Assembly: GCA_905178155.1 (NCBI GenBank)
Contig: CAJINV010000013.1
Span: 3,158,158 to 3,222,157, forward strand
Source of the DNA: Amoebophrya sp. A120
Lineage: Eukaryota; Protista; Dinoflagellata
DNA: 64,000 nucleotides
Direction: 5' to 3'
The notes under the pieces were generated by a model. It had not been told where the DNA came from and ran no database searches. It saw nothing but the letters and a program-made list of their open reading frames with translations. Made by a program: the position numbers and the translations under genes. Position 1 is the stretch's first letter. Every line of letters starts with the position of its first letter. Shown here one piece after another: positions 5,563 through 63,200 of the stretch.

Positions 5563-8500
5563 ATGCTGAAGAGCCTTCCGCTTTTGTTTTTCAGCCTGTT
5601 CCTACACACAACCACTCCCGTGGTCTTTGCCGTGCCTTCACCAGAGTGGTATTTGCCCGGCGTCACGCCCGTGCAGTACCAGCAGGGGCAGCAAGTTCCG
5701 CTCTTTGTCAACAAGCTGACCAGCGTGAAAACACAGCTTCCCTACCGCTACTACACCCTGCCATACTGTATTTTTTTCGTCTTGGTCACTTTTCGTTTTT
5801 CGGTGACACTGACGTCAGCGTGACACAAGCTTTTTCTTCATATAACAACATGAACATCGTCCCGCAAGCCACAACTCCACCCCTCAACATATTTACACAA
5901 CAGGTTCCCCCGACAAGCTCCGCGAATCTCGCGGAAACCTGGGCGCCTCGTTGATGGGGGATGTGGTGGAAAATTCACCGTATGAGGTTCGCATGCTGGA
6001 GAATACCAACTGCAAGAACCTGTGCCAAAAACCGCTCACCTCGGAGGACAAAAAACTTTTCAAGTTAATGATCGACGAAGATTACCAAGTCAACTGGATT
6101 CTGGATAATCTACCAGGTACGAATGAAACTTTTGGTAAAATAGAGTAGAACATCTTCCTCGGATATAGCAGCTGGCTGAAGTTGTAGTACGCAGTCGAAA
6201 ATAATGCCAATGCATCTTGCCCCTTGTCCTTGCCTGGCTCAATATTAAGGTTGTTATCCTGGCGCAACTTTATGCTCATTCGGAAAAGGTACCACAAAGT
6301 ACGCGCGGAAAAATGCTGGAAAGGAAGACTACACCTACATGGTTGGATTTCCCGTCGGGCTTGAGCAGCGCGGACGCTATTTCCTGCACAATCACGCAAA
6401 GATCATCATTCAGTATTGCCGTTTTCGTTTTCCATAAACTGGCGCAAAATGTGTCAATGATGAGATTGTGATTCAGAATGAATCTATCGAAATAGTCCAC
6501 CACAAACTGCAGATACCACTCCTCTCCCACGGAGTTTGCGGGCTTCCGCATCGTCGGTTTCGAGATCGAGCCGCATTCGCTGACCAACCAGCAGACGGAC
6601 CAGTGCCACGAGGGCGAGACCTCCCCGGTTTTTGACCTCGACGCGCAGGACTCCGTCACTTTCACGTATGACGTTTTGTGGAAATTTTCGGAAGACGAGT
6701 GGTCGGGCCGTTGGGAGCGGTACATGAAGGGCGCGAAGGGAAAGATCCACTGGTTCAGTATTCTGAACAGCGTCATGATCGTGCTGTTCTTGAGCTCCAT
6801 GGTGGCCATGATTTTGTTGAGAACCTTGCACCGGGACATCTCGCGCTACAACGAAATTGCGACCAGCGAGGACAGTGCGGAGGAAACAGGTAGGAAAAGT
6901 CTTGCGAAATGAAATTTGTTATAGGCGGCCAATGAAGCGCTTCTTCTGAAATGCGTAGCAGGGCATTGTTCCAGCTCGTAGAAATTTGATCAACAATGAA
7001 TTGTGAAAGGACAAGAAACTCACAAAACAGGCTGGAAGCTGGTGCACGGCGACGTTTTCCGCAAGCCGGTGCACAGCAAGCTCCTCGCAGTTTCCGTCGG
7101 CAGCGGTGTGCAGATCCTCGGGATGAGCATGGTGATCCTCGTTTTCGCCTGTCTCGGCTTGCTCTCGCCCCAGTACCAGGGCTATCTGCTGCAGTCCATG
7201 CTGCTCCTCTTCGTCTTCATGGGATCTTTTGCAGGGTATAGAAATCGATTTAGAACTTCTACATAAAACAAAAACTGTCGCGGTCCTACAATGGATGCAT
7301 TCTCGAAGTATAATTTGTCTCCTTGTTGCGCACCACTGCGACGTGCGAGCAATAACATCTCAAAAACAAACTGCTCCTGATGCAGCTCGGACCATTCATT
7401 GTTGCAGGTACTACTCCGCCCGGCTTTACAAGATGTTCAACGGACAGGACTGGAAAGCCACGACATTGTTAACGGCCTTCTGGTTCCCGGGTGTGGCATT
7501 CACTGTGTTTTTCGTCATTAATCTCTTCATTTGGTATATGGAGAGAAAAAAGTTTGTCACAGTCACTAACTTGGAGGTTTTGCATTACATCACAGCTTTT
7601 CCTTGTATTGCAGAAACACTAGGGAAATCCCTCATGAAGTTTGGCTGTGATGCATTTTTACGCATGACAAACAATTTTGTATTGCAAGAATGCGCGATGA
7701 GTGATCGTGACGAACTTTTTTTCTTCGATATGGTACACGGGAAGCAGCCGCGCCGTGCCCTTTTCCAGCATGTTCAACCTGCTCCTGCTGTGGTTCGGTG
7801 TCAGTGTGCCGCTGGTATTGAATATCTTGACGCACCATGATGGGCGGCGAAATCGTTCTTCATACATTTTCGCTGTGGAGTTTTCACTTTTCAGAGATAG
7901 AAAGACATCAAACCATGATCTCTGCTTTCCCCGTCATGCGCAACCATACCACGACGGCTAATGAGTATGAGAAGTGACAACTTATTCTTCTTTGAAAATG
8001 TTTTTTCTACCTCGGCACCGCAGGTGTTCTTCGGTGCCTACATCGGATACCGGCGAGACACGATGGAACTCCCCGTCCGCACGAACGCAATCCCACGTCA
8101 CGTTCCCCCGCAACCCTGGTTCACAAAACCGCTGATCACATCAATGATCGGGGGCGTCTTGCCGTTCGGGGCGGTGTTTACGGAGCTGTTCTTCATTCTG
8201 TCGTATAAATTTTTCGAATTTTTCATTTTCGGTTTCTCGTTGTGCACATTCCACCAAAATCTATCAAACGCGACAAGGTTGGCACCTGGCATGGGGAATA
8301 CCAGTACTCGAAGATCAACAATAAAGTCACCGCTTTTAGTACAGAAAAATGAACACGACCACAGGTCCATCTGGCAGCACCAGTTCTACTACCTGTTTGG
8401 TTTTCTTTTCCTCGTCCTCATCATCCTCGTCATCACATGCGTGGAAATTTCCATCGCCCTGGTCTATTTTCAGCTCACCTCGGAAGATTACCACTGGTGG

Positions 8501-8725
8501 TGGCGGAGTTTTTTCAGCAGTGGCAGCAGCGGTTTCTACGTTTTTCTCTACGCACTGCTCTACAAGGCCACGCGTATGCAGATCGACGACTTTATCCCGT
8601 CGTTGGTCTACGTGGGCTACATGGGCTTGATGTCCTACGGGTTTTTCCTTCTCACCGGTGCTGTAGGACTCTTGGGGGCCTTCTCCTTCGTGAAAACTAT
8701 CTACGGAAGCATCAAGATCGACTGA
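5563..8725 (+). CDS. TM9SF: Transmembrane 9 superfamily (nonaspanin/EMP70) protein, 9 exons
   Basis: Signal peptide then YLPGVTP..Y, VNKLTS, IHWFSILNS, GWKLVHGDVFRKP, EDYHWWWRSF, C-terminal KID. Inferred introns 5768-5903, 6117-6288, 6413-6512, 6890-7030, 7236-7407, introner ~7534-7732, 7815-8023, 8203-8364. Confidence 0.95.
7537..7730. mobile_element. Introner, 194 bp
   Basis: Imperfect ~31-bp TIRs tatggagagaaaaaagtttgtcacagtcact / agtgatcgtgacgaactttttttcttcgata; TSD tggta (7532-7536, 7731-7735); removal restores IWYTGSSRAVPF. Confidence 0.88.
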
Positions 8726-12500: not shown

Positions 12501-15500
12501 ATCACCGTTCTGAAACGGGAAATCTCCGGCACCATGCTCTGCGACCTGCTTTGCCGCGGGATCTGCATGAACAAAGGGGACCGAGCGGAGATAGAGGAGA
12601 TACCACGGTCACCCTCCTCCTCTGTTTCCCCAACCGGGAAACCCAAACCCCTCTCCAACTGGAAGCACCTCGGCCCCGACCACACCGACTGCGCGTTGCT
12701 GTCGTTTGCTTTTGAACTGGGCTACGACTACCGGAAATTCACTTCCAACGGCCCGCAGCAGCAGCAAAACGAAAAGAAGAAGAACCGTCCTGGTGTGGTG
12801 TCGAAAAAGAAAAAAACCACCCGGAATTCCTTCACCGTTCGACCTTTCACCAGTGAGAAGAAGCGCGCGACAGTGGTGGTAAGGGATTTGAACATGGGCG
12901 GGCACACGGTTTTTGTGAAGGGGTCCGTGGAAAAAATTCTGCCCTATTGCACGAAGAAACTGAATCTGGATGGGTCCGAATCGTCATTCCCAGCGACGGA
13001 AGAAGAAGACAAGTTGATCCGGAGCGGCATCTTCGGGCACAATTTACTGGATCGAAACTCCGAAAACAACAGCGTGCCCTTTCTGGTCGCGCTGGCTTGC
13101 AGAAGGTATAGTGCGGAAGATCATATGGCCGCCGCTGATGCGAACAACAATTATGGGCAGCAGTCGCAATCCGGGTCAAGTTCTAACTCGAAGGCAAACA
13201 GCGCTGTCTCTGGTGAAAATAACAACGATGAGAATGAAGACAGCTTTGAATGGACGCTGAAACCCGCGGTGAGCAGCAAGAACACAGTTTATTCGAGGCG
13301 GAATTTTTACAACAACGAAACGCGAGTATACCAAGAGCAGCAACTCGACGACGATGACCTTGACGAGCGTCACGGTGGTGTCGTTTTCTCGGAGGCGAAT
13401 AACGGGATAGATTTTTTCCCACCAATAAATTCGGACGATGAAGAGATTCTCACAGAGAATTCCACCATCAACGATTTGTACGACATCGAGACGAATCTGA
13501 CCCTGATCGCGGTTTTGGCAGTTTCCACGCCACTGCGACCCTCGGCGAGACCCGCGGTGGAGAAGTGCAGCAAAGCGGGCGTCGACGTCCGCTTGATAAC
13601 CGGTCTCTCCATGGAGTCCGCGATCATTTGCGCGCGGAACAGTGGGATTTTGAGAAGGGGGATTGACTACAACCCGTGGGACCCAAATATTGTCTCCGAT
13701 CGCGCGGTGTTAACCGCGGAAGAGTTTCGGAAACGAGTACTGGTTTCCACGGGCGGTGGGGGAACAGCAAACCAAGAACAGCACAATGCCGGCGAGGTTC
13801 TTATGGCACTCTCAACTGTTACATTCTCAGCTGTTACATGAATTTGTGATGCAAGAGCGGCAAAATTGAAAGGGGGAAGATTGCGCCTTTTGCATTACAA
13901 ATTCCGCACAGATTTAGGTGCTGTCTAGCCCTGCTTCGTAGATTTGTCATGCGAAGCAGCTTGACCACCTGGCGCCTTGAGGTAATTTTGCATGACAAAT
14001 CATGTAACAGTTGAGAATGTAACGTTTGGGAGCGCCATAGTTCTAGAGGAAACCGAGAAGGTTCTCAACCGCACCGAATTCGACCAGGTGTGGCCGTATT
14101 TGCGGGTCTTGTGCCAGGCGACTTCTTTGGACAAGTACTTGCTAGTGACCGGGATAAAAGACTCGACGTTGTATCAGGACGAGCAGGCGGTTTTGTCCCT
14201 CGGGATTTTCCCGGACAGGCAGGTGGTTGCGGTGACGGGAGAGAGCGTGACCGACGCGGAAATTCTAGAACAGTCCGACATCGGGTTCGTCATGGCAGAT
14301 TCGAACAACTTATCCACAGCTGTGGCGAAGGAGTCCGCGGACATTTTGATCACCACGTCGGAACGAAATCTGGTCCCTGCTGTCACAACTGGTCTGGCGA
14401 GACCTGACGGATCTTTAATAAGAGGAGAGCCGAACAAGACTTCGAACAGTAACAACAAGACAACCAAGCAGCCTGACGGCGGTTTTTCCAGTTTGATGCA
14501 AGCGACGAAGCTTGGGCGGAACGTTTACGAGTGCGTCTACAAATTTCTCCAATTCCATCTTACCACCACTCTAACCGCCTGCATCGTTTTCCTCGGCGGG
14601 GCGGTTACGTCCGGGGGAAGCCCGTTAACCGCGATGCAGCTCCTTTGGATCGCGGTTCTGATAGATGTGCTAGGAGCGGTGGCTTTGGCGTCGGAGCCGG
14701 CGACGGAGGATTTGCTAGAACGGCCGAGCCTGTTTCTCATCAACACCAGCTCCATCAATTCCACTACCAGTAACTTGACCAACGACTCGCAGCTTTTTTC
14801 CGCGCAAATGCTCTACCACATCATTTCCCAAACTCTCTACCAACTCGCAGTTCTCGCCACCATTCTGTTCGGCGCGGGCGACTCCGGACGCGGCGAAACC
14901 TGCGACATGCGGCACCCCTATTTCCCGGCGCGGAACTGCGACGGGTGCGGCGGCTGGTTGGACCTGCCGAGTGGGTTTGACCGGGAGCCCTACGTCGATT
15001 TTCCGACCCAGCACTACACGCTTCTGTTCAACACGTTTGTGTTTTTGCAGGTCTTTAATTTGATCAACTGTAGGAAGATTTACAACGATTGGAACGTGTT
15101 TGCGGCGATCACGAAGAATCAAACGCTGATGCTCATCGTTTCCATCATCGTCATTGTCCAAATCTTCATCGTCGAATCTGGAGCCCTTTTCAACGTGCTG
15201 CTGAATAACGACTTGACCACGGAGCAGGAGAGAACGAACCACCTGATCTGCAAGTCCGTGAACCACGCGTTTCGCACGGTGCACCTTCCGCTCTGGCAGT
15301 GGGGCGTGTCTCTCTCCCTCGCAGCTGGGTGCATTGTGTGGCGGATTTTTTTGGTGGCGCTCGCAAAGTCGAACTTTTTTACTTTGTTCTGGAAAGAGGA
15401 CATTTTTGTCAGCGGTTTTGGAACGATAAGCGGCATCCGCAGGTGGAAGAAGGGCGGATCCTCTACTGCGAGTGGAGGAGCCAATAAGGATGGGAGTGGG

Positions 15501-15746
15501 GGTGGAAATAACAGTGGGAACAACACGGACGGCGTCAGTCAAACCGGTACTGTGGGGAACAGTGAGAGGAACGGCGGCGCGGGGAAGCAGGGGTCAAAAC
15601 GCTTGGCGGAACGCATGAATCTGAACTTGGAAAATTACTTCTCGTTGTCTGGAAAGGGGCGGGAAAGAGAAAGAGCGGCGATACGGCACTTTTTGCTGAC
15701 CTCCTCGTCGAATGGCGGATCCGCTGCGGGGGGCGCTGGCGAGTGA
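9513..15746 (+). CDS. PMCA-like P2B ATPase paralog with degenerate catalytic motifs (probable pseudoenzyme), 2 exons
   Basis: P-type architecture (VVPESLPL, PFTSEKKR, VKGSVE, GRNVYECVYKFLQF, ALASEP, QHYTLLFNTFV). DKTGTLT appears as QKTGFLT, TGDN as TGLS, GDGTND as GESVTD. One introner at 13802-14039. Confidence 0.85.
13802..14039. mobile_element. Introner, 238 bp
   Basis: ~52-bp TIRs tatggcactctcaactgttacattctcagctgttacatg... / ...catgtaacagttgagaatgtaacgtttgggagcgccata; TSD gttct (13797-13801, 14040-14044). Confidence 0.9.
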
Positions 15747-16642: not shown

Positions 16643-19600
16643 ATGACAACGTACGGTACTACCGTGTCGCAGTTGCGACAGGTCTTTGAAGGTCGTGACA
16701 ATCCGCAGATGCTCAACGACCTTGGTAACGTAAACGGGATTCTGGAAAAGTTGAAAGTGAACCCAAAGGAGGGCGTCAAGCAGGCGGATGTCGCGGACCG
16801 GCAGCGGGTGTTCGGGGAAAACCGCATTCCCGAGAAGCCGGCACAAACCTACATGCAGATTCTCATCGGCGCGTTTCAGGATTTGACGATCATCATGCTG
16901 ATCTGCGCCGCCGTGGCGTCGTTAATCGTGTGTTTCGCGTTTGAAATACCCGAGCACCCATATTACAGTGAAAAATGCCCCCACCCCCGAACTTGAAAGC
17001 ATTTGTATTGCAAACCTTTCCAAATGAAACACTCGCCCTCTTGCATCTATCAGCATCGCAGGTTTTCAATCGTGAATAGCAAAGATTTGTATTGCAAAAT
17101 GCCCCAGCAAGAGTGGCGCTTGTCATGCAAGCGATGCGATACACGCCTACATTCTGCATCAAAAAGATTCATACTCCTTTCATGCATGACAAAAAGTTTT
17201 CATTTGGAAACTTCGCATCACAAATTTTTGCAATTTAGGGGTGGGGGGCACTTTTCACTGTAATAACCCAGACTCCCTCTGCTGGATCGAGGGGACGGCG
17301 ATCATTGGGACAGTTATTCTGGTATAAGACGCAGAGGCTCAGGCACTGACAGTGCAATGGGTGAAAAGTTTACTACATCGTGCATGTAAAAAGTAGTAGA
17401 GTGAAGGACTGTATTAATTTCTGTTTGCATGCAAAAAACAAGTCTTTTCTTTACCAAAGAGGACAGCGAAACATAAATTTTACGAGGTAACCAACGTGGC
17501 TGCGCTTCAAGATTACCAGAAAGAGCAGCAGTTCCGGAGACTCAACGCCGAGGTCGAGAACATCACCACCAACGTAGTTCGTGACGGCCAGAGAATCGCG
17601 GTGTCCCGATACGATTTGGTTGTCGGGGACATTGTCCGACTTTCCATCGGCGACATTCTGGAAGGCGACGGCGTCTTGGTCGAGGGGTTTGACGTCGAGG
17701 CGGATGAATCCGCGTTAACCGGGGAGCCAATTTTGATCAAGAAAAACCCCGACGCGCCCTTTTTGCTCAGTGGAAGCAGTATACAGAAGGGACAAGGAAC
17801 GTATGTCCTGATTGCGGTCGGGGTAAACAGCGAGAAAGGGAGAATTCAGGCGCTGGTAGAAGAGCGATTTCTTTACATAAAGAAGATGGAGGCCATTTGT
17901 TCGAATCATGTTGTTGCGTCACGTAATCCCGGTCGTTCCAAGCGCACTTTTTCTGTATCCCATCGAATACAAGGAAATAAAACATCATTGTTTCAAAAAC
18001 CTCAGGTCCGTGGGCACAATGTCGCGCTAGCAACCGTGGAAACGGATGACGGTGAGAAAAAAGAGGCGGAGGAAAAGAAAGAGGAGGAAGATATGCAGCT
18101 GGAAATCTGTTGTGAATGTCTTTCTAGTTGATCAAGATGCGGAAGCCGTGGCTACTACCACGGCTTCCGCATCTTGATCTTCGCGGAGTTGTTTTGCAAG
18201 CGTCTATTGTTGCACACGAGAAAGGAAATGCGTTTTCGACCTGTCTTTACCGTACGCTTGAAAAAGACAAGCATGATTTGCATTTGGCATCTCAACAAAA
18301 ATTTCGTTCCCACAACGGAAGAAGAGGAAGAGGAAAAGTCCCTGCTAACGAAGAAACTCGACGACACCGCCGAGCTAATTGGTGTGCTCGCAATGAGAAT
18401 CGCGGGGATTGCGCTCGTCGGAATGGCCTTGAATTGGGTCATCGACCAGGGAGAAGACAGCTTCTCCGACGGAAAGGCCTTGCGCGACGAGGCTATCCAG
18501 TGGGTACGTATGGAAATAAACCGTTCTCTTACTAGTGCTTGTTATGCAAGACGATGTTGCACTGCATTCCTAATCCAATTCCAATGTTGATGTTTTGGTC
18601 ACGCGTTTGAAAGATAAGATGGAAAATCATAAATGCCCACAAAACCACCAGATTATCATGGCCATCACGATCGTCGTGGTCGCCGTCCCTGAGGGTCTTC
18701 CGCTCGCCGTTACATTGGCCCTTTCCCTTTCCGTCGGCCGCATATGAATTGCAAAAATGTCTGGGTCTGGAAGATTGCAACTTGTCATGCTAAATCTGCA
18801 GCATGCAAAAATCTGTGTTGCATGATTACCAAAAGTCGTCCAGTTTTGACCAAGTCGGGAGGTAGTTTCTCATGCAGGATAGGCATTAGAAAGGTCTCGC
18901 AGAATCTGTCATGCTAGGTCCTGCATTCCAGACCTCATGGGTCATGGAAAAGCAGCATGACAAACCTGGCATTTTTCCAGACCCAGACATTTTTACATTT
19001 GATACCGCATGCAGGAGGACGAGTGTTTGGTCAAGCGGCTGGATGCCACCGAAACCATGGGCTCCGCCACCTGCATCTGCACAGACAAGACCGGGACACT
19101 TACGCAGAATCGCATGACGGTGGTGAAGTCGTTCTTCTTCGGCGCGAACGCGGCGGACAACACTGTTCTGACGACCGCGACGGAGACCTGCGGGGCTAAG
19201 TCAAAGCAAGCAATAGCCGCGGATAGCTTCAAGCAAAAGGTGTGCTACGGGATCTGCGCGAACAAGGCCGAGGCGGAGATCGAGTTTGACAAGGTGCTTG
19301 ACCGATGGACACAGATGGGGAACAAAACGGACTGCGCGTTACTTGCCTTCAGTCACGACATGGGATACGACTACAAGGTGTTGGACTTTTCCATGTCCAT
19401 GGCGAAAAAGATCTACCCGTTTTCCTCCATGCGGAAGCGGGCGGGCATCGTGATGCCGCACCCAAGCGGGTCGGGATTCCGGGTGTACGTGAAGGGTGCG
19501 TCAGAGATGATTCTGTCCCTGTGCAGCAAGAAGTGCGACTCGTCAAGCGACGCGGAACAAGAATTCACAGAACAGGAGAAGCGGGAAGTAATCACCAAAG

Positions 19601-22600
19601 TCGTCACACCCTTCGCGAAGCAGTCACTAAGGACAATCGGGCTCGCCTACAGGGACGTGTCCGCGGGCGAGAGTCCGGATTGGGACGCAGTTTTGAGTGC
19701 GGAAGACGCGTCCAGAATCACCGGACAAGCAGCGGAATGTCCGGTCTTTGAGACAGAGGTAAAGTCCCGGTAAATAACTTGTGTGTGCAGCGCATTTGTG
19801 CAAGTATGGTGATTTGCTGTGTCATGCGAAAAAAAAATGCAAACGCCACGAAATGAAAATACACATGATCAAGTAGATGTACAACATGGACAAACACGAG
19901 TCTGCATGTGTGTCCAGAACTTCTTTACAAATGACAAAACAGCTCACATTCCTTGGCCTGGTCGGTATCGAGGACCCACTTCGTCCCACCGTCGAGCCGG
20001 CGATCCGAAAGTGCAACTCCGCGGGCGTTGACGTCCGCATGGTAACGGGCGATAACATTGACACAGCGGTCGCGATCTCCAAGCAGTGCGGGATTCTGCG
20101 GCCGGGCATCGACATCGATGCCAGCTCCGGCGAAGTTTTGAACAACGCCGCGCTGTCCGGGCCGGAGTTTAGGAAGCGAGTGGTCGATAGCAACGGCAAG
20201 ATCAACCAGGAGGAGTTCGACAAAATCTGGCCGACCTTGAGGGTTCTCGCAAGGTCAAGTCCAACAGATAAATACTTGCTAGTGTCCGGTATCATCGAGT
20301 CTGATCTGTTCAAGAACCGGAAAATTTGCGAGGAGACAAAGATCTACCCGGACCGACAAGTGGTCGCCGTCACGGGCGATGGGACCAACGACGCGCCGGC
20401 ATTGAAGCGCGCGGACGTCGGGTTTGTGATGGGGTTAAGCGGGACGAGCGTCGCAAAAGACGCGGCGGACATTGTCATCACAAACGACGACTTTTCCTCC
20501 ATTGTCGAGGCGTGCAAATGGGGCCGGAACGTGTACGATTGCATCAGCAAATTCTTGCAATTCCAACTGACCGTGAACATCGTCGCGGTGACCCTGGCGT
20601 GCACGGGGTCGTTTGTGGACCGCGAATCACCCCTGCGAGCCGTGCAGATGTTGTGGGTGAACTTGATTATGGACTCGCTAGGGGCTTTGGCGTTGGCAAG
20701 TGAGCCACCAGTGCCAGAACTGCTGGAACGACCACCGTATGGGAGGAACAAACCGTTGCTCAGCTTTCAAATGAAGTACTTTGCTGATTTTTTGTGTGCT
20801 TTGCCTCCGTCATGCGATGCAGCAAGTACCAGAAAACGAAAACCTAAGGCTAGGCTATCTTTGTCATGCGGAAAGTGTATATAGTGAAAGTGAAGGTAGG
20901 AAAAGTGAAGCCATTGCTCGATGCCTGTGCGAAAATTTTGTCAGGTTCAACATGTTTGGGCAAGCCATTTACCAGCTCATTGTCCTCTTTGTACTTCTTT
21001 ACGCCGGTGCCGGAGCCGAGAAGGGCGACAAGAAGCCCGCGGAGGGACAAGCAAGGAGGTTTTTTATGCCATCTGAAGTCGACAACAGCGGAAGCGACTA
21101 CGACGTGTGGCACTGTGACGCCAGGGAATACAAGCAGGAGTACTACCAGAAGGCGTTTCCCACGCAGTCGGCGTCATCACCTCAAACAGACGCCCAAATC
21201 GACGCCGCCCTGGCACCCTATGGCGGGCTCTGCAGCAATTGCGGAGGCTTTCTCGACATTCCAAATGGTACTACATCAGGCTGCAGTTGTTGTAATTGAA
21301 GGTATGGTTTGTGTGATAAGGAGGCAACACGGGCCTAGCGAAGCGGCCCGGGTAGCCGACGCGGGAACACAAAGCGGATTTTTATAAGGAGATACTCCCT
21401 TCCCCACCGGTCGACGTTGTTACGGTCCCGGGAAGACCTAAAACTCGACCCAAAGTAATTCAAGTCAGCTCTCAAGTGAGTTTTTTTTTTTCAAGCGGCC
21501 TGCTGCCGCGCGTTTTTTCCAAAATGACAGTAAAAATGTATTCGCGAATGCGCCCTGCGGTGTGGTCTTCATCTCCTCCTCTCAAAAGTAGTTCCTCACG
21601 TCAAGTTTCAAGTGAAATTTTTTCAAGCGGCCTGCTGCCGCGCTTTTTTTTCAAAATCACAGTAAAAAATGTATTCGCGAATGCGCCCTGCGGCGTGGTC
21701 TTCATCTCCTCCTCTCAAAAGTAGGTCCTCACCTCCTTCAATTCGCCTGAGCGGTCAAAGCAAGTTTCAACTTGTCATACACTCAACATGCCCTGAGGCA
21801 CTGTAGTGGCCCGGCCACCTTTCCTTTCCTCTATTCCCTCTGAGAAAGCAAAGCTGTAGCGATCGCCTGTCTGACACGATCGCGCTTCTACTGAGCCTGC
21901 TGCTATTTCTTCACTTTGGCACCACGGTTGCACTCATCTACTAGTTTCAGATCTTCTTATCGCATGTGCGACAAGGGACAACGAAGAGCCCGAGCCCGAA
22001 AGGTGCCCCGTGGAGGGGCGGCCGTGGTAGGCCTCGCACAGGCCTATGTCCTGGCGCGGCCATCAATCAGGCTTCATTCCCAACATGACGGCGCGCTGAG
22101 CGTCAGTGCGACTGCAAGTACAAACAACCCAACGCACTCGCACCCCAGCGTGAGGAATTCGTCGGCCCGCCGCTGGGGTCAGTTCTTGGACCTGTGTTTT
22201 TTTTCCAACATTGTGTTGATGCTCCTGGGGGCGACGGAACAGAATAGGGCTGTCCTTACTCATGTGGTGTCCTCCCTGAATTTTGTAGACGATTTCACCT
22301 TAGCGGCACTGCAGCTCTCGGGCATAGCGACAGGGCCCGCGTCTACTCACCTGCAGCAAGTTGAAGCTGTTGGAAATAGTGACGGCGTTACTTCGTCCGG
22401 GGCTTCTGCCATGTGAATTTTTGCAAGGGGTTTGCTTTTTCTCCCGGCTCTACAAACTACAAGTTTTTCTAGGCCCGGCCTTCACAAAATATCAACTACT
22501 TACATTTGATAGCTTCAAGTGCACTGGCTTGGCTCTACGCCCGCCGTTGGCCGTCCTATGTCTAGGGTCCCTCACTCTGTGCTGCGGCATGAGTGAGCGT

Positions 22601-25600
22601 ATCAACATAGGGTGGGCGATTTTTCCGCTACACAACGCATATTAGTTCGGGCGCGCGTCGGGCCTGTGCCGGTGCCCGTCCAATAGTTGGCGCCACTATT
22701 TCAAGTGAGGACGAAGACACTGCGTCTATCGGTTGTGATGGGTGGCAGTATTAGTGTGTAGACCTTGTGGGACTGACGCCCAAGCTCTTAACCGTTGCAG
22801 TGTGCATCAGGCTGCAGTTGTTGTAATGACACATCTACCCTGGTAGAACCTTTTCGTGGAGTGACTGGAGGGAGTTTCCCCCCGTCCGTTTTTGTATATG
22901 GGCTGGCAGATCCCTAGAAGCTAATGCCTGGAGTTGTTGGTCTTCCACCCCTCTGAGTGGGGTCGGGGAAGGAGCCAACGCGGACGTAGTCCGCAGGTTT
23001 CGCTGGATAGTTTGCTTTGTGATGGATTCACATCGTTCTCGCGTTCTAATGAATGGTAGCTCATGTGCTCAGAGTGCACCGCAGTGCCATTCCGCCACTG
23101 AGGGCGCTTCCCAGCGGGGAAAGGTGATTTAGGAGGATTGCGTTCTAATGAATGGTAGCTCATGTGCTCAGAGTGCACCGCAGTGCCATTCCGCCACTGA
23201 AGGCGTTTCCCAGCGGGGAAGGGTGATTTAGGACGTTTTCGCTTTAATGGATGGTAGCTCATGTGCTCAGAGTGCACCGCAGTGCCATTCCGCCACTGAG
23301 GGCGCTTCCCAGCGGGGAAGATGGGTGTCAGGATGGTTTTGCGGTTTTTGCAACTAGTAAGTGGATCAGGAGGTGGATGTACTAAGATGCCTACTCATGG
23401 ATATTTCTGTTTTTCGAGCCCGTGGAGATATGGGTTGTTCTCTGTTTTCGCTCCTCATTAGGGCAGGATGTTTCATTCCGAGCTCTGGCCCTCAAGCTCG
23501 GGGTCCTAGATGGGCTGGCTGGAGTTTGTTTTTGTTCGCGCTTCTAGGGAATATGCGGCAGTGCTGGAGAGCATTATGGTGCTGCTCAGGGTGCAAGGCG
23601 GCTTTTGCTCGCCCTTCGATATGTGGCGGGTTTTTCAACTTACTTACTACCTACTACTCCGAGTAAGGGCAGGAGGCTCCGAAGCCTCGTTTGGGAAGCC
23701 CTGTCGGGGACAGATACCTCGCTGTGCTGGTTTTTAGCTTGAGAGCAGCTACTCCCCTGCCGGGTCGCGTCTCTACTCCTTTTTACACCAGAGCGGCTTC
23801 GCTTCGTCCTCGGTCTCAATGGGTCAGTAGTATAGTGCTGCGCGGGGTTGTCAGCGAGTGTACAAAACCTCCAGCCGGGAGCGCATGGGTCGAGTGCTAG
23901 AGGCTTTGCACTTAGGGATACGAGGTGGCGGGGCTCGCCGCAGTTCTATGGGCGATTGTTTTTGCTAGAGTTGGCCCTGTTGACGGCGGTGAGGATACTT
24001 ACTTTGTTTCGGATGCGCGTATAGCTTGCATCCCGTTCTTGGGGGCGCGGAGTCAGTGTCTATTCTATCCTGTCTGTTGGCCGTTTCGATAGATTTTAGG
24101 CTGGGGCCTGGGTCATTTTACACATTGGAAGTTTTCCGCTCAGGGGCCTGTAGTGCTACCCTCTGCTTCGCTTTGTTGATACTGCGGTCTAGTGCATGCC
24201 GTTTCGCGGTGGAGCTTCCCGGTCCTGGGGCACTTCTGTTTTCGGAAGGTTGGCTAGATGCCTCACAGCGCTGGCACTTATCTCGGCGGCTGCCTTTTTC
24301 TTTTACTTTTTCGGATTGGCCTTACAGTCTCATCTGCACCACACCAGGGGAGCTCCGCTCTGTCCTCGGTCTCGCCTTGCTTTGGGAACAGGGGTCGTTT
24401 GGCACTGGCGGTACCCAATCCGTTACCCTTGCGAACTTGTTCCCTGGCTGGGGCTGGTGGTTTGGTGTCTCCTTCGTTCGCCCTCTGTTTTTGTCCATTC
24501 TCCCGCCGCTTGCCGCAATTCCGGCCCGCGGTCTTCTGCTAGTTTGCGCATCGCCATCAGTTTTCTCCGCCCGTGCCGGCGGGCTTTCCCGGGACGGGAA
24601 GTGAGTGGCGTTTTTCTCTTGGCATTGAAGGACTTTCTTTTTCGCAGTTTGGGAGTGGCTTTTGGGCTTGTGTTGTATGTCTTGCCACCTCGCTTGGGCC
24701 GGGTGCTATCTGTTCCCCGGAGGTATCAATCCTTTCTACGTTTTGCGGCTCGCCACGAGGGGACGGCGGTTCGGCGCTTTCATTGCAGTGCTCCTCTTGC
24801 GGGTTTTTGGTCTTAGAGTGTATCGCGTTTTGTGTTTATCTTGGTATCGATGGGCTCCCCCTCAGTGGTTTTCCGTGTCGGCTAGGGGCCGTGTCCGACT
24901 TTTGTGCCTTGCGGGCAGTTGTCTCATCAGGTCCAGGGCGCAGAGCCTTTCGCGCGGGTTTTTGGAGTTTATCAAGAGGACGCTACGTGGGAGTTGGGTG
25001 GATCCCTTCTGGGGAATTGCCTGTTGCTTGCTGCTGGAATGTGGGGGGTTCGAGTGCTTGCTGTTCCCCGGTGGTATCCTTTCTACATTTTGCGGCTCGC
25101 CACGAGAGGGTGGTGGGCCGGCGCTTTTGATGCAGTATATCTTGTGCGGGATTTTGGCCTTAGAGTCCATCGTGGTGCGTGTCTATCTTGGTGTCTATGC
25201 GTTTTCCCTCAGGGGTTTTTCCGTGTCGGCTAGCGGCCGTGTCCGGGTTTCCTCGACATTCCAAATGGTACTACATCAGGCTGCAGTTGTTGTAATTACG
25301 GATGCACCTCGGTGCATCATTTTCGCGTAAGTGACGGAAAGGACGAGACTCCTATGGAAAGGGCTAGCAGATCCCTGGTAAGCTAATGCAAGGCGGCACG
25401 ACTGGACCCGCAATTGAGGCGGGGGTCGTGCCAAGGTTGGTTTTTCTTTCGATTGGCTGGACCCAGTCTAGGTTGACTGGGGGTCGATGTAGGTTTGCCA
25501 CGGCAATGGCCTGAGTTGGCGGCGCGACGACTGGACCTGGTCCTGGTGAGGTGACTGGGGGTCGGGATCGCTCAGATTCTTCGGTGAAAAGGCCAGGCGG

Positions 25601-42313: not shown

Positions 42314-42399
42314 AAGCATCTTTCTACCGCGATGAACAACAACGGGTAAGAAAAAGAAAAAGAGAAAACAACTTCAGATGAATTTGGATTCAACACACA

Positions 42400-50459: not shown

Positions 50460-50507
50460 AGATGATACATGCACGCGCATCAACGTCTGAACATTGGCCC
50501 CAAAGCA

Positions 50508-51466
50508 CCCTATAGGATTACTCTGCGGATAGAGGTGAAATAGTAGTGCAGAAATTTCCAGCCGGACGAAAGGGGTGGCCCGTTCCGCATGGGCCATCGC
50601 GTTTTCACAATGCACAGCACGGCGAGAAGTAATCGACTGGGCCCGTGGTCGCGGGCCATCGCGCGTTGGGGTTGCCTAGGGCGAGCGTGGGCCGACCGGA
50701 TCACCGGGCCCGGGTCAAGAGCCAGGCCCCCGGCCCCCAAACCGTTCGCGGGTGGCAAAAGAGAGGCTTCGCGGACAGCTGTGCGACAGCCGTGCAACAG
50801 CCCGGCCCCAACGCAGGCCGCGCTGCGCGGGACCTGCGGCACGGCTGCGAGACAGGTGTGAGGCCGGTTGGGGGCAGGCTCGCGACAAATTTTACACAGG
50901 TGTGAGAGAGTTGCGAAATAGGTGCGCAATAAGTGTGCAACAAGTGTGCAACAAGTGTGGATGGGTGTGAAGTAAGTCGTTTTCTAAAAGAAAACGAACT
51001 TATTTCACACCCATCCGCACTTCTTGCGCACTTGTTGCACACTTGTTGCGCACCTGATTCCGGCTGCTGCGCGGGCTGTTGCACAGCTGCCGCGCGGGTG
51101 CCTCACAGCTGCTGCCGGCCTGCCGCCGAGCGGCACCAGAGAAAAAAAATCCGCGGCGGCGGGGGCGAGATGAAACAAAATTTTCGCGCGCGCTGCGCGC
51201 GCGGAGAAGGTTGTCCTATTCGCTTCGCCCCCCGTGCTTTCAGAAAAAAAAGGGCCGGCGCCTCATGTTTTTAATTTTCGGCGCTGCAGCAAAATCTGCC
51301 ATGAGCGAATCCGCTAAAAAAAACCGAGCGCGGCACCCCGAGACCAAAGACGAGAAAAAAAGAGCGCCGAGGAGGCGGACCGCGGTGCCAAAACGCGGCC
51401 AGATCGATGCAGTTTTAGAAGTTTGCACATCTGTTTCACGTCTATCCGCAAGAGGTAGCAATAGGG
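50508..51466. mobile_element. Non-autonomous DNA transposon (CMC/CACTA-like termini), intergenic
   Basis: Imperfect ~50-bp TIRs ccctat...ctctgcggatagaggtgaaatag / ctgtttcacgtctatccgcaagag...ataggg; 3-bp TSD gca; central palindrome 50920-51055. Confidence 0.7.
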
Positions 51467-53343: not shown

Positions 53344-55377
53344 ATGCGCAAAACTTTTTCTACTTGTTTGCAAAACGCGCCGCCAGCAGAGCCACTGTAC
53401 TGGCGAGTCTCGGTCCGACGTGCGGCCAAAGAGACAGGAATCGGTGGAACGGGTGATGATCCTCGATTGGTGCAAGCGCGACTCAGATTGCCAATCTTCG
53501 GAACGAGGCAGAGTGTGATAGCACAGCCCAGTTCTTCTACTACGTGGTGTGCAACGTCAGCAGCATCGCTACCGGGAAGTAGACATCGAGGCCCCCTCGA
53601 GCACCACGCAGCGTCGTTCTCCACAACAGCCAACAGCGGAGGTGGTCGTGCAAGTTCTTCTACCTCTAAGGATGATGAAGACAAACGAAAAACGTCTGAG
53701 GACCAAAACAATGCGAGTGACGGCAATACCGGGTCGGGCACCTTCCGCGGCCGCTTTTCTTCGGACCCGGATAATCCCAATCATGAGCAAAGCGGTGGAA
53801 GTACGTCTAGCTCCAGTTCCGCCGCTGCGAACAAGAAGTACTCTGGCGAAGTTCCGGATTCCTTGAAGCATTTCCCGAGCTTCTGGCACCACCGGCAGAT
53901 AAAGCAGTTGGAACAGGAGATTACGGTGGAAAAGAACAATCACTCCCCCTCGCCCACTTCCAGCGACCAAAACGTGCCCCACTACCCCGAAGAGAACCTG
54001 CCCGACGCCTACAAGCCGCCGCAAGCGCGGACCCCCGGACAGACGCTCTTTCCGGCGGAGAAAGAGGATATCGAAATCCTCTCCGCCTCGAACCGGCTCT
54101 ACGCCCACCCCCGGTGGTGCGAGAACGCGACGATCTTGCGGATTGTGCGGTTATCGGATCCGGTGACTTCGCCGGTGTACCGGACAAACAGGAACCTGAA
54201 CCCCGGGGCCCACGGGACGGCGAAGTACGACCGGTTTGGGTACGGGCTCTTCTTCGCCTGTTGGGCATTCAGCCTGGGGTTCTGGCAGCTAGAGCGGATG
54301 GAGTACAAGAAATACCTGGTGGAACTACGGGCGAAGCGCCTCGCGATGCCCCTGGTCAGGCTGGAAAAGTCGCCGTTTCCCTGGCGGGACGGGATCGAGG
54401 GTATAATGTAGAATATGTGGAACTTGTTTTCCTTGCGTACTTATTTCAGTCGCAATCACAACAAGTTGCATGCAACAATCATACGCAAACTTGTACCTGA
54501 TATCGGCTCTTCAACAAACGCAGGTTGGGAATACCGCGTAGTCCAGACCCGCGGAGTGTTTGAGCACAAGAAAGAAATGTGGGTGGGTCCCCGGGCGCAG
54601 GGCGATCCGGCGGGGAACAGCTGTGGCCAGGGGTATCTGGTGATTACGCCCTTGGTTCTGGAAGATGGATCAACGATTTTGGTGAACCGCGGCTTCCTCA
54701 CGACCCAGGTGCTGCGCAACAAGGACCACGAGGTGCCTGGCTTCGTGCAAGTCCGGGGGGTCTTGGAGGAGGGCGAGATTCCGAACCAGGAGACCAACCT
54801 GCTGTACTTGAAAAACGAACCAGGACAGAAAAAATTCACCTGGCTGATCGCCGAAGACCTGGCCTACCACAGCTCCGCGGTGAACTACGAGGAATGTTGC
54901 AAGGGGCTCATAACCGCCTACGATTGCTACTACGAAGACCGAAAGAAGCACGAGCTGAGGTTCGACATGCGGCGGAAGGAGGATTTTCTGTTGTTCAACT
55001 TCGATGAACACACGAATTTCCAGTACGCAATCCAGTGGTTCTCCATCGGCGTAGTGGTTCTCGGAACGTACATATCAACTGTAAAAATGTCTGGGTCTGG
55101 AAGAATGCAAGATTTGTGATGCAGGTTTTCCATGACGCATGAGGTCTGGAATGCGAGACCCAGCATGACAGATTCTTTGAGGGCTCTATCATGCCTTTCC
55201 TGCATGAGAAACTCCCTGTCAACTTGGTCAAAAGCGGACAGCTTTTGGCACTCATGCTACACAGATTTTTGCATCATTTAGATTTAGCATGACAAGTTCT
55301 AACCTTCCAGACCCAGACATTTTTACATTTGATAGTACATCTGCAGGTTGAGAAGCGACTTGCTGTGGAGGTTTTAG
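53344..55377 (+). CDS. SURF1: SURF1/Shy1 cytochrome c oxidase assembly factor, 3 exons
   Basis: FSLGFWQLERMEYKKYL, GYLVITPL, ILVNRGF, FQYAIQWF. Intron 54401-54523 and introner 55073-55334; stop 55375-55377; start uncertain. Confidence 0.88.
55073..55334. mobile_element. Introner, 262-bp family, copy 2
   Basis: TIRs tatcaactgtaaaaatgtctgggtctggaa / ttccagacccagacatttttacatttgata; TSD gtaca (55068-55072, 55335-55339). Confidence 0.95.
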
Positions 55378-56419
55378 GCAGCTCGCGCTGGTGATTTCCA
55401 CAAAAATGCGTAGCCGTAAGAAGTGTAGAAGTAGAAGATGAAGAGGACAAATTGAAATTGCATATGCCCTCGAGGTCATGGCAGTCGCATGATTCAGCCC
55501 CCGCTTGGAGAAGCTGCTGCTAGAAGTTGACGGGTGTGTTGCTGTGATGTTCCACGCTTTTTAAGCGCTTTGTCTTCGCACCGAGCGGCAAAACGAGGTG
55601 GATCTGATTCTCTGCTTTTTTTTCACGTTCCGGTACTCTTTATTTTTGCCCGATGATCTACCTAGTCCTAGCCCACCGAGGTTGGCGTTACCATCTGCTA
55701 GACCTACTATGTCACTGCTTTGTACAGTCACGAACTTTCGAGGATGAAGATCAACACACTTAATGAAATTTCTAGGCCGATGACCATGTAGTTGATTCTG
55801 GAAATGTCGCCATGCTGCAGTTGCTTCACCGGAAAATAGATACGAGGCGGAAGCAGAAGCGGGATGATCAAATCAGCATCAGATCTAGCTGCTGGCGCGT
55901 TTCCACCTTGATTTTTTGTAAATCATTTTCTGGTTTGTTTTTTGCACAGGCGACATTTTCACGACGGAACTACCTCTTGAAGGAATTTTTTAGAGTTTCC
56001 CCGACGTTGTGCCTGTGTAGAATAGGAAATATACGTAAACGAGAAGGAAACAATACCGACAGGAACCTAGTGTGGAGATAGTCCTATTAAGAAAATAAGC
56101 CGGGATGAAACAACAACAAGCGAAGTCTATCGGCACAGGCCGCGTGCGGGTATACGTGTAGCACTAAACGCTACGGCCAATTCCACCGGATGACTGCTGT
56201 CGCAGCTGCATAAGGGCCTTCGTTCATCCATAAACAAGAAATCTTGGCATAAGTGGCCTACTGGCCGTGACCTCGTGACGACGACCTCGGCTTTTGAGAA
56301 CTTTCCGAGCATTCAGTTCTTGCAGTTGTACTTCTAGGTAGAGCAATACCTTCGCTGGCACTGGTGTTGGCCTTGTCAGGAGCTTTTTTTCGCAGGTTGT
56401 CAGCAGCCGCAAGAAGCCG

Positions 56420-59078
56420 ATGGGTGCCGGCGACAGCAAAGACGAACAAGGAAATAACTTAAAATCATTCTCATCTGGTACTACTACAACTAGTAATACA
56501 ACTGGAAGTGCAAAGAGCAAACACAAGAACAGGAACAGCACGAGTACTAAAACCGAGAAAGCCAAAACGCAACAAAAAGAAGAGAACCCCAACAAGAATA
56601 AATCTGGATCCAAGAAGTCCTCCATCTCCCCATCTGCATCGTCTGCAGCGGCAAAGATGAACGAGGGACAGGCAGTGGGAGTCGCAGCCAAAGATGTTGC
56701 CGCTCCAGCTAGTGCTGCCACACCGCCTGCGGAAAAAGAAGAGCGACAGCAAGTAGGAGGCGAGCCAGAGCAAGACTCTAGTAGTACTGCGGGCAGTGCC
56801 GCTGCCTCCGCCACGACAAATGACATCAGTAACGAAAAGCTTCGCGGGAGCTACCTCACCCGCCTGGGCATTGGCGCTTCGGCGACGCAGCAGGGGGTGA
56901 CGCGCACCTCACGCAACAGCCCGGGGCCGAACAATGGCACGAACGGCATCAACGAGGCCGACAACAGCCCCCCGAGAAGCGGCGCGGCGGCGGAAGGGGG
57001 GAGAAAAGCAACGCAGCAAACCGTTGTGGATTCGGTGGAGAAGAAACACGCAAAGAGCCCAGAAACGACGAGCGGAAACGGGGCGGGAGATAATCTATTC
57101 AAACCGGCGGCAAGGTAGAGCTGGATAATAGATTTTTTCGAGGTTGTCGCTTTTTGCTCGCAGTACGTAGATCATATGAAAAAGACAGTGCTGCTGAATG
57201 ATTGAAACTGAATTTTGGTATATGCGAAGATAAGTTAGTAAATTGCAGACCGGATTTGCAACATTATCCACTGTAAACGATCGACAGAACTGGCAACTCC
57301 CCCGGCGCCGGTCTGTTCGACAGTATAAACGACGTCGACGCGGAAAAGGAAAAAGAGGAGGCAAAGCCCGCGGCCCCAACGAAGGACTGGCAGATGACGA
57401 TCATCGGGGAAAACGACACTGCCCGGCTGATTCCGAACGAAAGGCCCGACGCGTTCCGCCACAAGTTTCTGCAAAGATTGTCCTACGAAAGAATCTGGGT
57501 GCCGCAGAGGGAAAGGGCGCCCAAGCATCAGACAGGTAATGTGCTTTGTCTGAAAAGTGTGTCTTGTTGTATATGGTACGTATAGATACATAGGCTCCTT
57601 GTACTTCTACATGCAGGTAGAAGTGGTTCTTGAAATGAGCCTGATCATCGCAACATGAAACTCCAACCACAGTGATCATCTTCGACTGGGACGACACCCT
57701 CCTCTGCACGAGCTACCTCAACCTGCGTCTCCCCACCCCGGAAATCCCGGCGCACATCCAGAAGCAGCTGGTCTTACTCGAACGCGTAGGCTGTCAGCTG
57801 TTGGAGTTGGCCATGAAACTGGGCACGGTTTTCATCATCACCAACGCCATGAAGGGCTGGGTCGAGTACTCGGCAAGCAAATACATTCCGAGACTAATGT
57901 CGACGCTGCAAAAGTACATCTTGAACAGTTCTTGTGTTTTCATCGCGACATAAATTAGATACAGGCGACAGATATGCACAAATGAGTTCATGCTTGCATA
58001 AGGTGAATCTGCCACATTCTGCATGACAGAGCGTTTTTGTCGTCCTTGGGCTGCGTAGCAAATGTCCCAAAACCCATGACAAAACAGAATGACCATCATT
58101 TCCGCCCGCGGCAACTACGAGCATGCGTTTCCGGGAAATTACGGGCAGTGGAAGATCGAGGCGTTTTTGCAGGTGCAGAGAGAGCTGAACTCCTCCATCA
58201 TCACAAATCTCGTGTCGCTCGGCGACAGCAACATGGAGATGGAGGCGGTGCACGTGATGGGCAAGCAGTTCGACCAGGCACTGATCAAGACGATCAAGTT
58301 CCGCGAGTCCCCGACCCCGGAGGAGCTTGTGAAGCAGTTGGAGCTGGTCGCGCAGAAGTTCGAGAAGATCATTCTAAACGCGAGAAATTTGAAGATCGGC
58401 TTGGAAAGAAAGTGGTCCGGGAACCAGCAGGGTGGTGGAGGTGGTTCATCTCAGGGACACCACCAGCAGCAACAGCAGAAGAGCGGTTCGAGTAAGCCGT
58501 CAACGCCGGTTGCGGCGGCCAACGCTGGCGGAGCGTCCATTGCGCCAGCAGCAGCAGGAACAGGACCGCAGGCGACAACGTCCTCGGGCAGCACGCCGAA
58601 CACGTCGTCTTCGACACCAGTGAATGAAAACTCCGCGACTGGAGCGACGTCACTCCACGCACAGATGCTGCGAGACCAGCAGAACAAATCTTCAGCCCAA
58701 GGTGGAGCACCAGGAGCTGTTCCAGCAGGACCACCACCTTCATCACAACCCCAGAGCAGCGCCTCCACCACCGAAAACAGTGCTGATAAGACCCCGACGG
58801 GGGGTACCAGTCCGAAGGATAACTCCTTCGAGCAGGCCTCTGACGGCTCGTCGGTCTGCGACCAGCCGCCGAACGTAGCGGATGTCGCAGACGTGGACGG
58901 GATGACGTCGCCGCGGCGTGCTGTCATCACCGCGGAAGAAAAGAACGAGGCATTGCGTCGCGCGGGCTTCCATCCGAACGAAAAGTTCCATGACGTTTCT
59001 GTGGCGGACGGTTCCTCAACTGCAGGTGCTGAGAAGACTGTGGCAGGCGGTGTTGATGAAAGTAGTGCGAAGAATTAA
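56420..59078 (+). CDS. HAD-superfamily-like conserved protist protein with low-complexity flanks, 4 exons
   Basis: TVIIFDWDDTLLCT (DxD motif), IITNA..GWVEYS, IISAR, NLVSLGDS. Inferred introns 57115-57287, 57536-57672, 57914-58087. Confidence 0.8.
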
Positions 59079-60248: not shown

Positions 60249-63200
60249 ATGATGTCCTCGCGGCTGGATGCACGGGAACTGCAGCGCAAGAGCGTGCACC
60301 GCATGCTCCACCTGGCGCTGACAGATGAGGACGTCATATGCATTGCAAATATGTCTGGGTCTGGAAGAGTGCGCGATTTGTCATGCAGCTTTTCCATGAC
60401 CCATGAGGTCTGGAATGCAGAACTTAGCATGACAGATTCTGCGCGATCTCTCTCATCCCTATCCTGCATGAGAACCTCCCTCCCGACTTGGTCAAAACTG
60501 GACGACTTTTGGTAATCATGCAACACAGATTTTTGCATGCTTCAGATTTAGCATGACAAGTTGCAGTCTTCCAGACCCAGACATTTTTACATTTGATACG
60601 TCAAGTCGTACGACAATAAGGCGCAATGGAAGGTATTGACACCTTTTTGTGATGGTTTGTCCGCATGATAGACGGACAACTCCTCTCCTCACTGCGTTGG
60701 AAATTACAAATAAACTAGCTCCTGCTGCGTGACCGATTCATCTCCAGTGAGAAATTGAAACACAAAACCAGGCTCTCGTCTACGACAAGCAAGGCCAGGA
60801 CATAATAGCCCCGCTATTCACAGTCGGATCGTTGCGATCCCTTTTCGGCGTCACCCTCCACCGGTCGATCACCAGTGAGAGGAGCGAGGTCCCGGACGTG
60901 CCTTGTATCTACTTTTTGGAGCCGACAGAAGCGAACATACAGAAGATGATCGACGACTGCAAACGGAAACTCTATCCAGAGTAAGTTCGATGTTTGAGAA
61001 AAGATCATCTTGTTGCACTTAGGATGCATGTTGTTCTTTTAGCTGTCTACCTTTACTCTTCGCATCTGTCGTGAGAATATAATAACTTCGCACAACTGCA
61101 TCAATTTCAATTCCCGCATAGTAAGTAGCTAGTGTTAAAATTATGCTCTTCCTAAAAATCAGGCTCTATGTGAATTTCACTTCTTCCGTTCCGCGCCCGT
61201 TGCTCGAGAAACTCGCATTTGGCCTGAACGAAATCCAGGAGGCTCGGAGAATAACGAGCGTGGTCGATAGATTTGTCAATTTCGTCGCCCTGGGCACCAG
61301 TTCGGTGAGTTTGAATTTGGAGAAGTCTTACCAGACACTCCGGTCCTCACTCGTCACGGACGACATTATTGAGAAACTGTTGGATTCCATCGCCACCGGA
61401 ATTCTCTCCTTGTTGGTCACCTTGAAAGTGGGGATTCCCATCATCCGCTGCCCGCCGAACGATGCCGCGCAGCTGGTCGCGCAGAAATTGCACGAGAAAA
61501 TCTACGACTTAACGTCGAACAGCGGGTCAGGTGGGTCCGCAAATAAAACCGGTGATTTATTCCAGGGTTCGTTCGCCCACGCGGGGGAGCCGAGACCGGT
61601 TTTGTGCCTGTTAGACCGGGATTTGGAATTGGGGACCATGCTCGCGCACACCTGGACCTACGAATCCATGTGTCAGGACGTTTTGGGGATGCGGTTAAAC
61701 AAGCTGAGTGTGATAGAAAACGAAGACGACCCCGTGAAAGCGCAGAAGAAGACCTATGACATAGACGTATCTATTGTGTTTTTTTTGATGTTGCTTCGAC
61801 GATCGTGTTCGTGCGCGCTATTCCTGCATGACCTGCTTGACGACAGCGACACAACATAGTGACATGTTGTACAAGCGTGATTCAGATATTAGCTTCAAAA
61901 TTCTGAAATACCATACGAAACAACACTATCAGCCCAACGACAAGTTTTGGTCGGAGTACCAGCATGTCATTATCCACGAGCAGTTTGAAGCTGTCGACCG
62001 GGAACTCCAGGAATTCAACAAAAAGCACAAGCACATGCAGTCCGGGGACTTGAACCAGGCAATAACGCAACTACCCGAGATGCAGGAAAGAAAACGATCG
62101 TTAGAGATGCACACCAACATAGCGCACTCAATATTGAAGCAGATCCAGAAGCGGGCGTTGGACAGGTAGGGTGCTTAATGATGCTTAATGTGCAGCAGAC
62201 GAAGAACTACATGTGCTTGTGCATGATGTGCATCTAGATCATTTACGTTGCGGTGGCCTAATCCCCAAGATTCAATATACCACTAGTGCTTCTACCATAT
62301 GCCTCTTTGCACCCAACCCAAAACCAACCCACAGGTTCTACGTCGTCGAAGACCAATATGCGCAGCAATCCGTGCCCAACGCCTACTCCGCACTGGAGGA
62401 GCTTCTCAAAGAGGTCCCGAACGCCACGCAGCAAGACAAAATGCGGGCGATACTGGTGCTGTTCTTGACAAAAAGCGCGGTGTATACCAGGAAGGCCGAA
62501 GGAGGTCCGGACAACAACAAACTGTCCGATTTGCTTTTCCAACTGGACAAGATCGGCGCGTCAAGAGCACCGCTGGCGTACTTGGAGCACATCGTGAAAA
62601 CAACCTGTCACAAGTATAGAGTAGGTCTTTTTGATTGTGGTGATGTTCCAGTATCAGTTTCCGTTGGTCATCGACATGATTGGCATTGTCCAGCGCCTAA
62701 CTATTGTTTCTAAAATGCACTACCAGGCCCCAACTTTCCTCCGGCGCGAACGACCTTCAAAACACCATCGCGAACCACGGCCAAGCCGCCCTAGGCCAGG
62801 TCATCGGTGGGCAGCACGCGCACGCGGTGGGGCGGATGTTCGGGGGGTTACTCAACCAGGCGGCGGAAGCCACGATGCGGAATCTGGAGAAAATCCTGCC
62901 CACGAAACGGGAGTTGCTCACGACAAAGATCGTAAAGACGCTGATGGAGAACAGACCGGATTCGCAGGCGGACAGCTCAGCCGCAAAAGTGGATAACTAC
63001 GTGTACTTGGATCCGAAACTACCGCCGAGCACCAGGGTATTTTAGCTGATTGGAAACAAATGTGCTCACTCTATACCACGAGACGTGTTATTTTATGCTA
63101 GAAGACGCTTGCTGTTACTGTCGTATCTGTATATATTCCTATTCCTCTTTCTTTTGAGAATAAAACTAAAAGTGAGCACCTCGTCCCTACAGGCTGCCGC

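Follow-up and report, generated by a model that had tools for sequence, protein, structure and literature searches.

Precise removal of TAT-ended introners in Amoebophrya sp. A120 and a probable donor register shared with its ordinary introns

Where is a transposon cut when it behaves as an intron, and by what machinery? We addressed this question in a 64,000-nt stretch of Amoebophrya sp. A120 (contig CAJINV010000013.1, positions 3,158,158 to 3,222,157; hereafter the window). Its genes contain ordinary GT-AG introns and also introners, elements with terminal inverted repeats (TIRs) reading TAT…ATA and flanked by a target-site duplication (TSD). Such A120 introners are already known (Farhat et al. 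2021, PMC7789003; recatalogued in PMC12130899). Farhat et al. describe 65% of A120 introns as non-canonical, state the mode of cutting as open, mark the border as unknown (Fig. 3 legend) and propose an alternative mechanism. The text examined of PMC7789003, main and supplement, contains no fixed register common to introners and GTA donors, and our literature search, whose scope excluded subscription papers, found no paper that fixes the A120 register.

Nine TAT…ATA elements with a 5-nt TSD lie in the window, all on the + strand like the introns described below. Between 19 and 23 of their 24 terminal bases are complementary; eight TSDs are perfect and one has a single mismatch. They show the marks of A120 introners, namely TAT-starting inverted repeats, a short direct repeat, repeated families and absence from transcripts (judged from RNA contigs for two, annotation for four and frame only for three). 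We give each with its TSD and its predicted intron: 2282..2740 (TTTCG; 2281-2744, GT-TC) in a PAP2-like gene; 7537..7730 (TGGTA; 7536-7734, AT-GT) in a TM9SF gene; 13802..14039 (GTTCT; 13801-14043, TT-TC) in the first of two P-type ATPase genes; 16961..17265 (ACCCA; 16960-17269, AT-CC), 18743..19004 (CCGCA; 18742-19008, AT-GC) and 32282..32563 (mismatched, GTACG/GCACG; 32281-32567, GT-AC) in the second, PMCA-type gene; 37430..37735 (ACGTC; 37429-37739, CT-GT) in a RING gene; 55073..55334 (GTACA; 55072-55338, AT-AC) near the end of a SURF1-like gene; and 60337..60598 (CGTCA; 60336-60602, AT-TC) in a Sec1/Sly1 gene. The element at 18743 belongs to the same family as those at 55073 and 60337, in opposite orientation.

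In RNA contigs (runs X1 and X3, one sample; assumed to be RNA, and without introns), 199 nt are missing at 7537 and 243 nt are missing at 13802, each time the element plus 5 nt. The pieces of the RNA contig record sum to its 3575 letters with no leftover sequence between them, and our statements on RNA joints rest on 15 of 22 joints. Two annotated A120 proteins were matched at 100%, P0001 by the PMCA exon 31891-32280 and P0319 by the Sec1 exon 61164-61763. P0001 requires removal of the element plus 5 nt at 16961 (310 nt), 18743 (267 nt) and 32282, and P0319 requires the same at 60337 (267 nt). Since the A120 gene models were derived from transcript alignments (PMC7789003), these proteins are indirect transcript evidence. 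For the introners at 2282, 37430 and 55073, precise removal leaves open frames; no joint for 2282 stood among the RNA-contig joints listed. The RNA contigs had no depth over the exons at 16961, 18091 and 18743, and the stretch compared with RNA ended short of 32282, 37430, 55073 and 60337. Raw reads of runs X10 and X12, examined for lariats, gave just 75 and 3 partial element matches and did not cover the genes; neither a lariat nor an excised intron end appeared. We conclude that A120 introners leave the mRNA precisely, together with one TSD copy. An intron of the form N-TAT…ATA-N, which would leave three extra bases behind (and be plain GT-AG for 32282), was rejected, as the joints correspond to the element plus 5 nt.

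A TIR motif search provided a larger sample of 168 loci (L001-L168; 494 kb) matching the element families of the window, in which elements were taken as spliced from frame context alone. Strand was called by a coding model trained on the window; on 400 test pieces it was correct for 226, wrong for 4 and made no call for 170, and two ways of calling strand were concordant for 154 of 165 elements. A first count gave 324 elements, from which 38 with more than two TSD mismatches were removed; 29 of the remaining 286 had no strand call. The count of terminal triplets started from 309 elements and, with 32 lacking a strand call, yielded 277 oriented ones. Decoy triplets produced no hits in the perfect-TSD class. 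They filled the class that combines a triplet mismatch with a TSD mismatch, and the four oriented elements in that class were removed afterwards, leaving 273 (266 from the loci and 7 from the window). One locus, L001:1-2128, has five element ends in 2.1 kb, so that introners are very densely packed there.

The ends of these elements appear little constrained in sequence. At the predicted +1 position, the 273 elements had G93, A72, C58 and T50. They used 61 of the 64 possible end types, and GY-AG was available in any register in only 21. None of the nine window introners has GT/GC-AG ends in the predicted register, and all nine end pairs of the original prediction were reproduced from the sequence. 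TSD composition equals the coding background, element lengths spread across all three frames, and the largest family occurs in both orientations (46:36). A pyrimidine as the last intron base (C in seven and T in two window elements) was considered and rejected, the 205 perfect TSDs giving A48, C58, G67 and T32. The end types, together with the register tests described below, support the predicted relaxation at +1 and at the AG.

We placed 35 GT-AG introns in the window, preferring the GT-AG placement where intron positions were equivalent; about 34 had been inferred before. Donors were GTA in 34 and GTGC in one (33 GTA first reported), and by +4 the GTA class comprised 15 GTAT, 10 GTAC, 5 GTAG and 4 GTAA, close to the 15 GTAT and 9 GTAC first reported; 25 of the 34 GTA donors thus have T or C at +4. 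G occupied +5 in 6 of 35, as first reported, and began 26 of the 35 downstream exons, in line with the majority first reported. Inside these introns only 20% of GT precede A, so that chance does not account for 34 of 35 (p 3e-23). No pyrimidine tract was present in the 35 introns, the stretch before CAG being A/C-rich.

A motif, GCATGAY, links the two intron classes. About 72% of elements (196 and 195 of 273) contain it in either orientation, and it occurs in 10 of 34 ordinary introns (null mean 2.0, maximum 6 of 1000); intergenic and coding DNA hold it 7-16 times less often. The GTGC donor, alone among the ordinary donors in not being GTA, belongs to an intron (41725-41924) that carries the motif in reverse. 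Judged from this shared motif, some GT-AG introns may be aged introners; alternatively, GCATGAY may be a common protein-binding motif.

Which register do the introners use? Probably the last TSD base is +1 and the TAT supplies +2 to +4, as originally predicted. Four indirect tests support this register, short of proof: the mismatched TSD at 32282, the profile of ordinary donors, a coding model applied to mismatched TSDs and the decay of terminal bases. At 32282, both P0001 and the A25 ortholog have the residues DVYALA; base 2 of the TSD is therefore that of the left copy, and a cut is possible only after TSD base 2-5. The single mismatch (at 32565) does fall in the part predicted to be intronic, but four registers remain allowed. 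When eight registers were scored against the ordinary-donor profile, only the cut after TSD base 4 was positive (+2.3 bits over +2 to +6, compared with 3.8 for ordinary donors themselves); the others scored -3.3 to -11.4. The coding model was applied to 48 of 52 mismatched-TSD elements that passed a frame filter, and the sums for cuts after base 0-5 were -6.0, -2.0, -4.6, 0.8, 6.2 and 5.5. Where a base-4 mismatch changed the amino acid, the left copy was favoured in 5 of 5. An inspection by eye of the direction of mutation in mismatched TSDs was uninformative.

Decay of the terminal triplets was counted in the 277 oriented elements. At the 5' end, T+2 changed 0 times, A+3 3 times and T+4 8 times; at the 3' end, A-7 changed 3, T-6 4 and A-5 7 times. 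T+2 therefore varied 0 times versus 7 at its mirror base (p 0.016), or 0:8 after one strand conflict was resolved by hand. The eight changes of T+4 were to C or G, the same letters as in ordinary donors. A transposase should make no distinction between the two ends, so that the absence of any change of T at the 5' end of the sense strand suggests selection on splicing. Further along the arms, past the triplet, none of 26 positions differed convincingly between strands (lowest p 0.04).

In the spliceosomes known so far, G+1 and G-1 form a pair and U6 touches both U+2 and A-2; losing the G+1 pairing while retaining U+2 would require changes around Prp8 and U6. We lean towards the ordinary U2-type spliceosome as the agent of precise introner removal, with its 5' cut one base ahead of TAT and its 3' cut four bases past ATA. 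It would read T+2, A+3 and a pyrimidine at +4, with G+1 and AG no longer required, and it would place the 3' site not by sequence but at a constant distance from where the TIR hairpin ends. Introners and ordinary introns would then share the same machinery. As both TIR ends read TAT, either orientation would offer a donor, and nearly any exonic insertion would be silent. U2, U4, U5, U6 and most spliceosomal proteins were found in A120, with U1 and snRNP27 undetected (PMC7789003); two related strains, AT5 and Kv, are canonical, the latter with U1. In yeasts, loss of SNRNP27K or METTL16 accompanies +4 U donors (PMC10581693), and unmethylated U6 is described in the literature as pairing with +4 U. 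This link agrees with the undetected snRNP27 in A120. A more far-reaching version is tentative, and we would put it somewhat short of an even chance: a single U2-type spliceosome without U1/snRNP27K would have given up G+1 and the AG and would use N-TA-Y donors and a 3' site four bases past the hairpin, TAT-ended transposons would be universal introns, and about a quarter of the GT-AG introns would be aged copies.

If true, a spliceosome ignoring the first and last intron bases would exceed known relaxed cases and would explain the cheap spread of transposons through exons. A fixed register also makes exact predictions for each intron end, for lariat mapping and for changed spliceosome contacts.

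Several results weigh against the shared register or against the spliceosome as the cutter. Ordinary introns of the same genes keep GT and AG (35/35 as placed), which a fully relaxed spliceosome leaves unexplained, and the hairpin would conceal the donor. The donor-profile test is partly built in, TAT being fixed, and the coding test does not separate cuts after base 4 and base 5. Of the seven mirror-base changes, five are A to G and retain a U-G pair, so that a mechanism relying on the hairpin only also predicts part of the T+2 asymmetry; non-wobble changes amount to only 0:2. A+3 shows no asymmetry (3 changes versus 4 at its mirror). A looser rerun requiring one flank gave 2 versus 5, which is not significant, and both exceptions resembled wrong strand calls when judged by eye.

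In the strongest rival, a second, hairpin-guided system of the kind proposed for Euglena makes the same cuts and the match to GTA(Y) is coincidence. The unconstrained +1, -2 and -1 positions beside ordinary introns that retain GT-AG would fit such a system, as would the strong hairpin of the element at 32282 (z -5.55), the pairing kept in the mirror-base changes and the undetected U1. Euglena, moreover, has paired motifs at fixed spacers, for which the authors suggest distinct factors (PMC12501133). However, the third pair can be lost through a change at T+4 (7-8 cases) while T+2 never changed, the fixed letters coincide exactly with the ordinary donor consensus, and one intron (18091, described below) is annotated as spliced with at most a weak TIR. 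We regard a separate system as less likely and favour the spliceosome as cutter.

It is improbable that the cut lies elsewhere or varies inside the TSD, most plausibly directly at the T of TAT. Perfect TSDs do conceal the register, and the cut after base 5 comes within 0.7 of the best coding score, but against the ordinary-donor profile a cut directly at that T obtains -11.2 bits. Sites variable relative to the hairpin were reported by Farhat et al. (PMC7789003), a variability that may stem from aligner choice within direct repeats.

How is the 3' site found? The original prediction added that the acceptor is picked by identity to the exon end, so that an N-TAT donor would be joined to an acceptor identical to the last four bases of the upstream exon. 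Fresh insertions possess this identity by construction, and among elements with at most one mismatch, bases 4-5 mismatched 10 times versus 23 at bases 1-2 (p 0.035). This gradient vanished with two mismatches allowed (21 versus 31, p 0.21), however, and TSD pairs mismatch at 2.9-4.9%, near a rough neutral estimate of 3.6%. In ordinary introns, the end of the exon and the end of the intron match no more often than in shuffled pairs (54 identities versus 54.5), and the annotated end of the 18091 intron has 1 of 4 bases in common. The identity rule is probably wrong, and the full rule that combines it with the N-TAT donor is very doubtful. The remaining acceptor cue would be a fixed distance from the hairpin end. 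An obligate branch point at A-7 found no support, as this base is changed in 3 of 277 elements (4 with a hand call); A occupies -7 in 18 of 35 ordinary introns.

The 18091 intron had been described as TIR-less, starting ATAT and spanning 18091-18321 (231 nt) within a ggaaga direct repeat. It does start ATAT, but the annotation gives 228 nt (18091..18318; AT…GG in the N-TAT register), and the annotated end ignores both the perfect repeat and an AG, which come three bases later. As the region is a glutamate run, an error of one codon in the annotation is possible. Of 16 inverted-repeat ends tried, the best (18314) agrees with 228 nt, with a score matched by 3.7% of unrelated pairs, and the intron carries one GCATGAT motif. 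It is possibly a decayed introner, 18092-18314. A near-perfect 22-bp hairpin lies within it at 18128-18179.

Several described systems resemble these introners in part. The published A120 introners likewise have TAT-starting inverted repeats and RNA-supported non-canonical introns of about 240 nt, with direct repeats of 3-5 nt (PMC7789003) compared with the 5-nt TSD in the window. In Polarella glacialis, introner class 12 has a 5-nt TSD whose last base can form the donor with the first element base (bioRxiv 10.1101/2020.10.14.339549); there, however, the TSD must provide G and AG (NNAGG), whereas in A120 it equals the coding background. Fritillaria borealis has TIR/TSD-derived introns and an altered U2 spliceosome, for which a change in U6 m6A is invoked (PMC13326754, PMC11282704). 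It prefers AG-AC and AG-AT and has U1, unlike A120, where +1, -2 and -1 show no preference and U1 is undetected. Euglena nonconventional introns share paired ends, direct repeats and fixed spacers from motif to cut (PMC12501133). Their motif is CAG/CTG, with spacers of 3 and 5-6 and exons that begin with a purine, and bears no relation to Euglena's own GT donors; the A120 motif agrees with the ordinary donor, and its spacers would measure 1 and 4. The Euglena signature, N3CDG…CHGN5-6 before an R-starting exon, differs from the A120 introners, which end in TAT/ATA and can be followed by any base. Nor do they form a U12 (AT-AC) class, as their ends are not limited to AT-AC; minor snRNAs are reported absent from A120 (PMC7789003). 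Species lacking METTL16/SNRNP27K keep GT-AG and have +4 U donors (PMC10581693), and ordinary A120 donors favour T/C at +4. An Rfam search of the window gave no match, for snRNAs or otherwise.

The ordinary introns have GTA donors throughout except in one. Joints in RNA contigs support the seven of the TM9SF gene (5768-5903, 6117-6288, 6413-6512, 6890-7030, 7236-7407, 7815-8023 and 8203-8364). The transcript contig of this gene begins at or before 4258 (region 4258-5767), and the frame that is open from 4543 onwards contributes some 330 further codons of low complexity before a signal-peptide-like stretch. Annotated A120 proteins support 12 introns, namely six mapped with P0001 in the second PMCA-type gene (within 17322..31888; starts 17322, 17856, 18504, 19759 and 20776, plus a 10.6-kb intron at 21268-31888) and six mapped with P0319 in the Sec1/Sly1 gene (60633..63192). 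Seven were placed by frame only: three in the RING gene (36728..37999; starts 36728, 37066 and 37823) and four at 54401..58087 (starts 54401, 57115, 57536 and 57914). The nine introns of a PF16/SPAG6 gene (39467..42178; eight GTA and one GTGC) were placed from the 96% identical homolog P0200 and frame, four by script and five by hand with the open frame checked.

The tandem PMCA-type Ca-ATPase genes (9513-15745 and 16643-32741) differ in intron content: the first has one intron, an introner, in 6 kb and the second has ten. The exon end and donor of the 10.6-kb intron lie in a 52-nt stretch that occurs at 21249-21300, 25249-25300 and 31723-31774, with a partial copy at 22805. Exact copies flank an insert of about 10.4 kb, and more copies lie inside it. 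The annotation splices from the first copy, whereas the last would yield a normal short intron. The repeated stretch and insert may be either a site-specific element or an assembly artefact. A 266-nt exact repeat (27816-28081 and 28489-28754) flanks an N gap and is probably an assembly overlap. Elsewhere, two tandem genes have a cysteine-rich 198-nt segment in common (47710-47907 and 49815-50012; 91% identity), and an intergenic region at 50776-51100 contains nested inverted repeats and short tandem units of a kind other than TAT…ATA.

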